Shown piece by piece: positions 1,091 to 1,219 of a stretch of 7,097 nt of DNA (the first letter of the stretch is position 1; the number at the start of each line of letters is the position of its first letter). Origin of the DNA: a virus; IMG/VR virus record IMGVR_UViG_3300013869_000036, positions 1 to 7,097 of that record. One strand, 5' to 3'. Made by a program: the position numbers and the translations under genes. The notes under the pieces were generated by a model. It made no database searches. It saw nothing but the letters and a program-made list of their open reading frames with translations, and was not told the DNA's origin.

Positions 1091-1219
1091 TGGTACCTTT
1101 CCTTTCAACCAGGTTCGTTCCTCGAGGAGGGAAATGGTACCAAACCATCAGAAAGATTCCTAGCGATTGGTACCATTTGTTCGACCAGGTGCGATCGGAG
1201 ATCCGCGAAAATGGTACCA
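1091..1219. promoter_or_regulatory. Array of four TGGTACC(A/T) palindromic operator-like sites upstream of orf85
   Basis: Sites are TGGTACCT 1091-1098 and TGGTACCA at 1135-1142, 1168-1175 and 1212-1219, all with A/T-rich flanks (AAATGGTACCAAA, ATTGGTACCATTT, AAAATGGTACCAG, TTTTGGTACCTTT). Centre-to-centre spacing is 44, 33 and 44 bp. I found GGTACC nowhere else in the window. ACCAGGT recurs 15-16 bp after sites 1 and 3. Confidence 0.5.

Follow-up and report, generated by a model that had tools for sequence, protein, structure and literature searches.

Between the recombination site and a small accessory operon of a filamentous phage genome, the palindrome GGTACC stands four times in a row, and the question that this locus raises is which protein reads these boxes and what their occupancy would achieve. 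The window, that is, the whole stretch of DNA analysed (7097 bases), is the circular genome of a filamentous phage (~6970 bp) plus a terminal overlap of 127 bp. The minus strand is the coding strand for most of its genes, among them the G2P-type replication protein (5662-6978), Zot/gI (1471-2712), a G5P-like protein, the coat genes and orf54. The non-coding stretch at 1089-1334 separates the side of Zot/gI and orf54 from orf85 (831..1088, minus strand), which encodes a protein of 85 aa that is proposed to bind the boxes; its predicted topology is ribbon-helix-helix (RHH) with a long helix after it. The end of orf85 is overlapped by 8 nt by the start of orf58 (662..838, minus strand), a small CxxC...CxxC protein with a zinc-ribbon-like motif, which is a variable cargo of the operon. 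On the plus strand, orf69 (58-267) adjoins the replication gene; it matched no family and has a plausible RHH-like sequence pattern by eye. The attP site itself (1219..1335, minus strand) is composed of two inverted dif-like sites, which give a CTX-type hairpin when the packaged strand folds, as seen from the inverted repeats I4 and I5 and from the ssDNA fold. In another non-coding region, at ~299-356, there are hairpins that are kept even in phages without the array.

The nearest GenBank record, the metagenomic inovirus blackswan219-1 (83% identity over 65% of the genome), has neither orf85 nor the boxes, which is consistent with a mobile module. Integrase-less prophages of ~7 kb of the same kind have been described as Pf groups 4-7 of P. 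aeruginosa (PMC10675462), where a term search found no mention of palindromes or ribbon-helix-helix. The array was not described in the literature searched: queries with TGGTACCA returned primers only, and those on phage NEU2023 returned nothing.

Architecture and conservation of the box array

GGTACC occurs at 1092-1097, 1136-1141, 1169-1174 and 1213-1218, and there is no further copy in the 7097 bases, in agreement with the first-pass annotation, which had reported four copies within 128 bp and none elsewhere. The expectation is 0.97 per window (200 dinucleotide shuffles), at least four sites anywhere were seen in 3/200 shuffles, and the Poisson estimate for four copies in one 128-bp stretch is ~4e-9 per stretch or ~3e-5 over the window; a chance cluster is ruled out by these two calculations. 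It also holds that three of the sites form the full 8-bp palindrome, sites 2-4 being TGGTACCA (starting at 1135, 1168 and 1212), that site 1 is TGGTACCT (1091), a 7/8 match to it, and that the centres are spaced by 44, 33 and 44 bp. Read in the direction of orf85, the outermost is Box A (site 4, 1212..1219), which ends 7 bp from the XerC-arm-like ATTATGCGA of the attP hairpin, followed by Box B (site 3, 1168..1175) just upstream of the inferred -35 element, Box C (site 2, 1135..1142), which on the minus strand with its flank reads TGgTACCAT, an extended -10, and Box D (site 1, 1091..1098) in the 5' leader. Measured from the inferred transcription start near 1127, their centres fall at ~-88, ~-44, ~-11 and ~+32, respectively. 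Site 1 had been placed between the Shine-Dalgarno sequence and the ATG (1088-1086); instead, it overlaps the SD-like GGAAAGG (1096-1102, minus strand), and in relatives box D lies 9 to 27 nt from the start codon, so that its position is not conserved.

The region can be described as two copies of a ~77-bp unit, each consisting of a box pair 44 bp apart with ACCAGGT inside. This inner element, a CCWGG motif, is found at 1184..1190 in the A-B pair, 10 nt from box B, and at 1108..1114 in the C-D pair, 11 nt from box D. The other half of the C-D spacer holds the palindrome CCTCGAGG (1120..1127), one of the recurrent, variable hexamer palindromes considered below. Open reading frames run across the array on both strands (1090-1233 on the plus strand and a 105-aa extension of orf85 on the minus strand). 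A coding constraint on the boxes was ruled out, since they lie in different frames; nor is box D separated from the ATG by a number divisible by 3 in every case.

Homologues of orf85 were gathered from IMG/VR, GTDB genomes and assemblies, their named hosts being Pseudomonas, Stutzerimonas, Phytopseudomonas, Cellvibrio and a Halieaceae MAG. The boxes are kept in ~60 non-redundant relatives, while the intervening DNA diverges. This is well illustrated by six aligned phages, in which boxes and immediate flanks do not vary and the window's 38-nt spacers bear no relation to the rest, and the same footprint spans phages whose orf85 proteins are 32-72% identical. This contrast between invariant boxes and diverging spacers supports a functional array for a dimeric DNA-binding protein, as the first-pass annotation had supposed. 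The boxes precede every homologue that has enough upstream sequence, down to 32-40% protein identity. They share the consensus TTT-GGTACC-ATTTT, whose longer T-tract faces the inside of the pair; the A/T-rich flanks noted at first hold for the consensus, in which they are directional, and fail in the window at the outer flanks of sites 3 and 4, which are G+C-rich.

The spacing is conserved as well. Among non-redundant relatives, distances of 44 bp (120 cases), 55 bp (34), 34 bp (31), 33 bp (17) and 22-24 bp (8) were counted, which identifies the unit as a pair whose boxes are exactly 4 x 11 or 5 x 11 bp apart. The distance from pair to pair is less strict (22-24 or 32-35 bp), and therefore the proposal of exact multiples of 11 bp is correct within pairs and only approximate between them. 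The usual array has two pairs, and three pairs also occur. The search for motif and spacing conservation in related inoviruses hence returned invariant boxes at quantised distances, and the idea that the sites share one face of the DNA is strengthened, as helical phasing evidently matters.

Since each pair is also an inverted repeat, the pairs might act as hairpins of the packaged strand, in the manner of an Ff minus-strand origin or packaging signal, and not as duplex operators. In the ssDNA fold, A:B and C:D form stems of 10-14 bp beside the attP hairpin, the whole 266-nt region folds with z = -6.7, and arm complementarity in the window reaches 94% for I2 and 72% for I1. Across 115 non-redundant units, however, the complementarity between halves equals that of randomly re-paired halves. 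This partner shuffling gave no signal for an Ff-type stem kept by compensatory change or for a cruciform, both of which were rejected, and the lack of complementarity beyond the consensus indicates that the element is read as duplex DNA. Furthermore, each box is palindromic by itself, a feature superfluous in a hairpin, a hairpin loop need not be exactly 38 or 49 nt long, and the 11-bp quantum fits helical phasing, which again argues for duplex DNA and against a hairpin role. The box sequence moreover tracks residues of the neighbouring protein, as described below, and the region at ~299-356 is a better candidate for an origin or packaging signal than the box pairs. A hairpin function of the pairs is therefore very improbable. 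No known RNA was matched in Rfam, and as regards a packaging signal, the short GC-stem hairpin inside gII that work on integrative inoviruses describes in Xanthomonas phages (bioRxiv 10.1101/2024.03.19.585677) is unrelated to the box array.

Co-variation of the boxes with the orf85 strand

The first-pass annotation had named orf85, orf58 and the RHH protein orf69 as candidate binders. As a reverse test, the pattern GGTACC-N38-GGTACC-N14-30-GGTACC-N38-GGTACC was searched in IMG/VR contigs and matched 42 of them. In 38 of these the array is immediately next to an orf85 homologue; the remaining 4 are unrelated 22-bp tandem repeats or coding repeats. By comparison, orf58 is absent from three loci (L002, L004 and L005) and orf69 from three (L003, L005 and L006), and the array is kept in all of these. 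Being often missing where the array is kept, orf58 and orf69 were ruled out as binders by co-occurrence, and from the original list orf85 alone fits, both by adjacency and by the co-variation of its sequence with that of the boxes.

This co-variation is the strongest and, if indirect, apparently decisive evidence for orf85 as the putative reader. A Halieaceae homologue with another N-terminus (MAKTLTLRL...) has no GGTACC and is preceded by GCTAGC/GCTATC boxes at 44/32/44 bp, GCTATC boxes also accompany two more KTLTLRL proteins, and four GATATC at 44/32/44 belong to a protein that begins MNILIRD. A scan of IMG/VR for the same layout with other cores yielded ~27 inovirus-size contigs with four GCTAGC (44/24/44), every one of which adjoins a family member starting MLLTIRD, MMLTIRD or LLTLRD, and two further contigs with four GATATC, beside MHLIVRD and MIVQIRN. 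A fourth symmetric core, GTTAAC, gave no array among the IMG/VR contigs scanned for the layout. When strands and cores are compared, GGTACC goes with a strand of the form xL[IVL]K[FLI] in 57/57 loci, GCTAGC or GCTATC with [ML]LT[IL]RD or KTLTLRL in 26/26, and GATATC with I, L or Q at position 4 and R at position 6 (NILIRD, HLIVRD, IVQIRN) in 3/3, so that the 86 non-redundant loci hold no exception to the match. Strand position 4 tracks position 2 of the hexamer, with K accompanying G, T accompanying C, and a hydrophobic residue or Q accompanying A, and residue 6 is variable or R depending on the box class. This is the pattern that an RHH ribbon inserted into the major groove would give, and it leaves no room for a host factor, orf58 or orf69 as the reader of the box core.

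The opposite possibility is that a host protein, orf58 or orf69 binds the boxes and that orf85 is just the regulated gene. The RHH-like look of orf69 and the zinc-ribbon-like motif of orf58 speak for this, and the CCWGG motif, being independent of box class, could be the site of a host factor. Against this, orf58 and orf69 are missing from several array-bearing phages, no array of the four-box layout was found without an orf85 homologue, and three box cores occur in phages of related hosts, each with a different orf85 strand, a change that a host factor would not undergo. It is thus highly unlikely that orf85 is only the target of another binder, and orf85 itself is preferred as the reader.

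Structure prediction is compatible with such a role. The AlphaFold2 model of orf85 (44-sequence alignment, pLDDT 92) shows residues 1-8 extended and helices at 9-19 and 24-76, and hence the strand-helix-helix topology is present within ~45 residues of the prediction; the N-terminal strand is unpaired in this monomer model, as expected for RHH. From this model we infer a ribbon-helix-helix fold. The predicted 53-residue helix scores against coiled-coil families. A Pfam search with orf85 found no family above the cut-off, no RHH family reached the threshold in the family (RHH_1 matches 2/44 members, E 0.025), the Pfam Arc family matched neither orf85 nor its members, and a profile search of PDB sequences gave coiled-coil noise only, with no match to Mnt or Arc. 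Foldseek returned only weak matches in the PDB (E >2), in a list that includes the RHH folds ParD, NikR and MatP and the TCP domain, and the BFVD search was likewise weak; NikA is also among the RHH names in these weak lists.

The family corresponds to PHROG 8031, whose function is not described, and its members are hypothetical proteins in every source. It comprises 216 representatives at 50% identity, nearly all of ~85 residues, and ~3/4 of them have Lys at strand position 4. No homologue was found on plasmids. The most conserved part is the C-terminal 20 residues, across box classes, a conservation that seems to imply an additional partner. The gene downstream of orf85 varies among relatives (zinc-ribbon-like proteins, tiny TM peptides or none): an orf58-like gene is present in 4 loci, and ~57/91 relatives have no detectable gene just downstream of orf85. 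Where there is one, it is often joined by an 8-nt overlap, like orf58 in the window. The C-terminus of the family does not vary with the downstream partner gene. A type II toxin-antitoxin operon with an RHH antitoxin was also considered and rejected because no conserved cognate toxin gene lies downstream.

Promoter overlap, inner elements and the attP neighbourhood

In the window, the inferred extended -10 of the orf85 promoter consists of TG at 1142-1141 and TACCAT at 1139-1134 (minus strand), as judged from the sequence and its relatives, and a weak -35 candidate, TAGGAA (1162-1157, minus strand), is located 17 nt upstream of TACCAT, which would put the transcription start near 1127. A consensus promoter scan of the window found none owing to this weak -35, for which reason the assignment draws on relatives. 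TACCAT is present at box C in 29/32 non-redundant arrays, and the best -35 candidates match better when the arrays are read towards orf85 than in the opposite orientation, which served as a mirror-image control. At the -35 place, 16-17 nt upstream, relatives have TTGACG, TTGAGT, TTGACT or TTGATA, and in blackswan219-6, which reads TTGATA-17-TATAAT, the box equivalent to C overlaps the -10. Similarly, in the GCTATC and GATATC classes TTGACT or TTGATC precedes, by 16-17 nt, a TATCAT in the box. The overlap of box and promoter is therefore kept in all three box classes. A sigma-54 promoter (TGGCAC-N5-TTGC), suspected by eye at box A, was dropped because relatives do not keep the distance to its GC dinucleotide.

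Since the boxes overlap promoter elements, their likely function is autorepression by paired, phased operators, and the array is probably the cognate operator array of orf85, through which the protein controls its own promoter. According to this model, the N-terminal beta-strands (MLIKF...) of two chains would pair to form the RHH ribbon, and the second helix would continue as a ~50-residue helix that joins dimers. One dimer would read one 8-bp palindrome, T-GGTACC-A, on double-stranded DNA (the replicative form or the prophage), with strand residue 4 (Lys) specifying base pairs 2 and 5 of the hexamer. Dimers on paired boxes, four helical turns apart at ~11 bp per turn, would touch via their helical parts, and the two pairs would bracket the promoter, with box B upstream of the -35, box C over the extended -10 and box D over the ribosome-binding site. 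Occupancy would then switch off transcription of orf85-orf58 and thus provide negative autoregulation of the attP-proximal accessory operon. From the conserved boxes, their quantised spacing, the strict co-occurrence and co-variation with orf85 and the promoter overlap we infer that orf85 binds directly in the oligomeric state described, that loops form, and that the effect is repression and not activation.

As a separate observation, which the operator model has to accommodate, RHH repressors normally bind adjacent sites, and box pairs at 44 bp without an intervening box are unusual among them.

The operator model also does not explain the near-invariant CCWGG inside the pairs. The motif occurs in 98/103 non-redundant 38-nt spacers (6.3 expected), always 9-12 nt from a box, and is extended to ACCWGGT in half of the cases. 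It is likewise kept in the GCTAGC class (58/66) and the GATATC class (7/7); enriched and retained across box classes, it must be selected, but it is not read by the variable strand. The spacer half opposite CCWGG holds the varied 6-bp palindromes, of which CTCGAG (28), CTGCAG (18), AGATCT (17) and CGATCG (13) are the commonest in the 103 spacers, these being raw counts with no chance expectation, and the 49-nt spacers of 55-bp pairs have a central GGCCGGCGC-like motif. Several relatives have extra box pairs downstream of orf85, some of them directly before tiny membrane-peptide genes. These extra pairs, together with the frequent lack of a downstream gene, suggest that the complex does more than autoregulate. 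Taken with CCWGG, the conserved C-terminus and the variable downstream gene, they suggest a larger nucleoprotein complex and a further partner.

After CTX-type integration, a prophage is expected to keep the whole double site. Two loci (L011 and L013) keep it, and upstream of the XerC-arm motif their sequences depart from one another and from that of the phage, the upstream genes of L011 being of the DHDPS and Hexapep families; they are read as integrated prophages, as expected for CTX-type integration. Among 46 non-redundant arrays, 38 start 4-13 bp from an XerC-arm-like TTATGCG, at a variable distance, and the other 8 follow another small gene rather than attP. The first-pass annotation had suggested that occupancy of site 4 could couple operon expression with the accessibility of attP. 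No result supports this, and with the distance variable and eight arrays away from attP, the coupling is possible and not indicated.

In a stronger form of this idea, the orf85-box complex would be mainly architectural for the CTX-type attP: bound next to the XerC arm, on duplex DNA or on the A:B and C:D stems of the single strand, it would govern the folding, accessibility or directionality of XerCD recombination, with the promoter overlap secondary. It would be in keeping with the short distance to the XerC arm in 38/46 arrays, with the position of the array at the boundary next to the retained double site in the two loci read as prophages, and with the predicted rebuilding of the palindromic boxes as duplex in A:B or C:D hairpins beside the attP hairpin in ssDNA. 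The many relatives with orf85, no detectable cargo and extra boxes downstream fit it as well, as does the C-terminal motif kept across box classes, which suggests a conserved partner. The evidence that argues against it is that another gene separates attP from the array in 8/46, that the variable XerC-arm distance leaves no fixed phasing, that the A:B and C:D hairpins show no co-variation, that an exact spacing of 44 or 55 bp has no obvious meaning for hairpin loops, and that box and promoter overlap in each of the three box classes. A mainly architectural role is accordingly unlikely, if clearly less so than a hairpin function or another binder. The same low probability applies to its most specific version, a phage-encoded accessory system for host XerCD recombination in which a rigid RHH-coiled-coil protein sits on phased boxes. 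Assembled on duplex or rebuilt hairpin boxes, this protein would decide how attP folds, whether it is protected or what directionality it has. Xer or another host protein would be contacted by the invariant motif at the C-terminus, and CCWGG would add a further element for recognition or bending. If true, the attP link would represent a new kind of Xer accessory system.

Significance and relation to known systems

The autorepression model gives PHROG 8031, a family without a described function, a concrete proposed one, and it would explain a conserved non-coding element in the widespread ~7-kb XerCD-dependent filamentous phages of Pseudomonas and relatives, a group that includes a cultured P. 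aeruginosa phage, NEU2023 (array at 6055-6170), in which the orf85-family gene is unannotated. Three box classes in one architecture amount to a natural specificity swap, which could make an RHH recognition code testable and could yield orthogonal repressor-operator pairs. In addition, pairs at exactly four or five turns with an inner CCWGG could serve as a compact model for short-range DNA looping or wrapping.

Several known regulators resemble parts of this arrangement. The Mnt repressor of phage P22 combines an N-terminal RHH domain with a C-terminal helical oligomerisation domain and autoregulates from a palindromic operator over its promoter. Like Mnt, orf85 is phage-encoded, has ~82-85 residues with a predicted RHH and helical C-terminus, and would act on palindromes over its own promoter; the two have no detectable sequence similarity, and in contrast to the one compact operator of Mnt, with half-sites one turn apart, the boxes here form two to three pairs with members 44 or 55 bp apart. 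As proposed here for TGGTACCA, MetJ places one RHH dimer on each 8-bp palindrome (AGACGTCT) and occupies several boxes cooperatively. However, met boxes are contiguous, and MetJ requires a co-repressor and has no coiled coil, whereas the boxes of the array are whole turns apart with CCWGG between them.

A closer parallel for the proposed bridging of two palindromic sites is MatP-matS, in which an RHH protein with a C-terminal coiled coil joins dimers, and the MatP structure 3vea is one of the weak Foldseek matches to the orf85 model. MatP differs in being a chromosomal organiser with an extra four-helix bundle, sites kilobases apart and no autoregulation. ParR/parC, ParG and omega share with the array the placement of repeats around the promoter of an RHH gene and a higher-order autoregulating complex, but their 7-11-bp repeats lie side by side and they function in partition with an NTPase; the array has no partner NTPase, and the family was not found on plasmids.

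Spacing by whole turns is familiar from other folds. Looping studies have put the helical repeat in vivo at ~11 bp, which the 11-bp quantum of the array (44 versus 55) matches. Operators whole turns apart are likewise used by lambda CI, AraC and LacI, which differ from orf85 in fold, the loop here being fixed at four or five turns with a conserved inner element. In cer and psi, protein-binding DNA flanks the XerC side of the Xer core site, as the putative binding sites do here. These systems depend on host PepA, ArgR and ArcA in a fixed geometry, whereas the binder of the array is apparently phage-encoded, its distance of 4-13 bp is variable, and with 8/46 arrays not adjacent to the core site a fixed position beside it is not observed.

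To conclude, by analogy the array would work like known RHH autoregulators, namely Mnt, MetJ and ParR/omega, with bridging of the MatP type. It stands apart from these through pairs fixed at four or five turns, through its inner CCWGG and through specificity classes that form a natural series.

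Box pairs and the DNA next to them

The array lying upstream of orf85, the 85-aa proposed binder of the GGTACC boxes (window 831-1088, minus strand), consists of two pairs of palindromes, A-B (1213 and 1169) and C-D (1136 and 1092). A four-box array is also present in the cultured P. aeruginosa phage NEU2023 (L064, PQ144888), where the boxes lie at 6055, 6099, 6121 and 6165 with a spacing of 44/22/44 and adjoin the attP of that phage. The accompanying orf85-family gene (~6184-6441) is unannotated in the record, which instead carries a CDS at 6037-6543 on the opposite strand. In five other loci (L003, L033, L034, L041 and L112, the latter being MZ474488 blackswan219-6, 850-1165), box D is followed by an inserted 71-aa gene (MVLKFTDD...), and the orf85 homologue has a further, duplicated box pair in front of it. 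This duplicate is partly degenerate, reading GGTACT in the L003 group, while blackswan219-6 retains intact GGTACC. As judged from these arrangements, it looks as if the box pairs flank a cargo slot.

Dense GGTACC clusters of another kind occur in larger viral contigs, namely at 1840-2050 of L093 and, as 22-bp repeats, in L066 and L099. No orf85 homologue was found in these three contigs, and their clusters were rejected as orf85-type arrays, being unrelated repeat arrays that match the search pattern by chance.

Circular genome and tandem prophages

Positions 1-127 of the window are repeated exactly at 6971-7097, and this 127-bp terminal duplication means that the genome is circular, ~6970 bp long, and that the window continues beyond the point where it began. 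Among the relatives, the orf85 module is found twice on a single contig in several cases, with the copies ~6-7.6 kb apart in L016/L017, L024/L025, L055/L057 and L060/L062, and ~14 kb apart in L059/L061. Such pairing indicates tandem prophages, which are usual in CTX-type integration.

In addition, the window contains a 58-bp stretch (299-356) that includes the two short hairpins GTCTAACCGTTAGAC and GTCCACCATTAGAGATGGTGGAC and is 98% identical to NEU2023 despite the differing surrounding DNA. A matching stretch is found in blackswan219-1 too, again amid different neighbouring DNA. The 58-bp stretch is a candidate for an origin of replication or a signal for packaging.

Other accessory genes and candidate operators

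The closest GenBank phage, blackswan219-1 (L001, MZ474489), carries neither orf85 nor GGTACC boxes. At ~1088-1170, before a different accessory module, TATGGTAACGTTAC (palindrome GTAACGTTAC) occurs twice, ~64 bp apart, and the two copies may by analogy be an operator pair for another regulator. Within the window, an overlapping palindromic sequence, CACATGCACACATGT, lies at 20-40 between orf69 (58-267, plus strand) and the replication gene. This sequence, which bears no relation to the GGTACC boxes, is a plausible operator for orf69.

Furthermore, L020, L022, L083, L091 and L111 encode a second small protein family (~76-95 aa; for example MAIMRKPIPLVIPSNLV...EACRAILDL) between attP and the array. 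Its members, which are absent from the window, also look like strand-helix-helix proteins, followed by a coiled coil. The small protein orf58 (window 662-838, minus strand) is found in some relatives only and has no match in Pfam or PHROG; its CxxC...CxxC spacing recalls a ClpX-type zinc ribbon.
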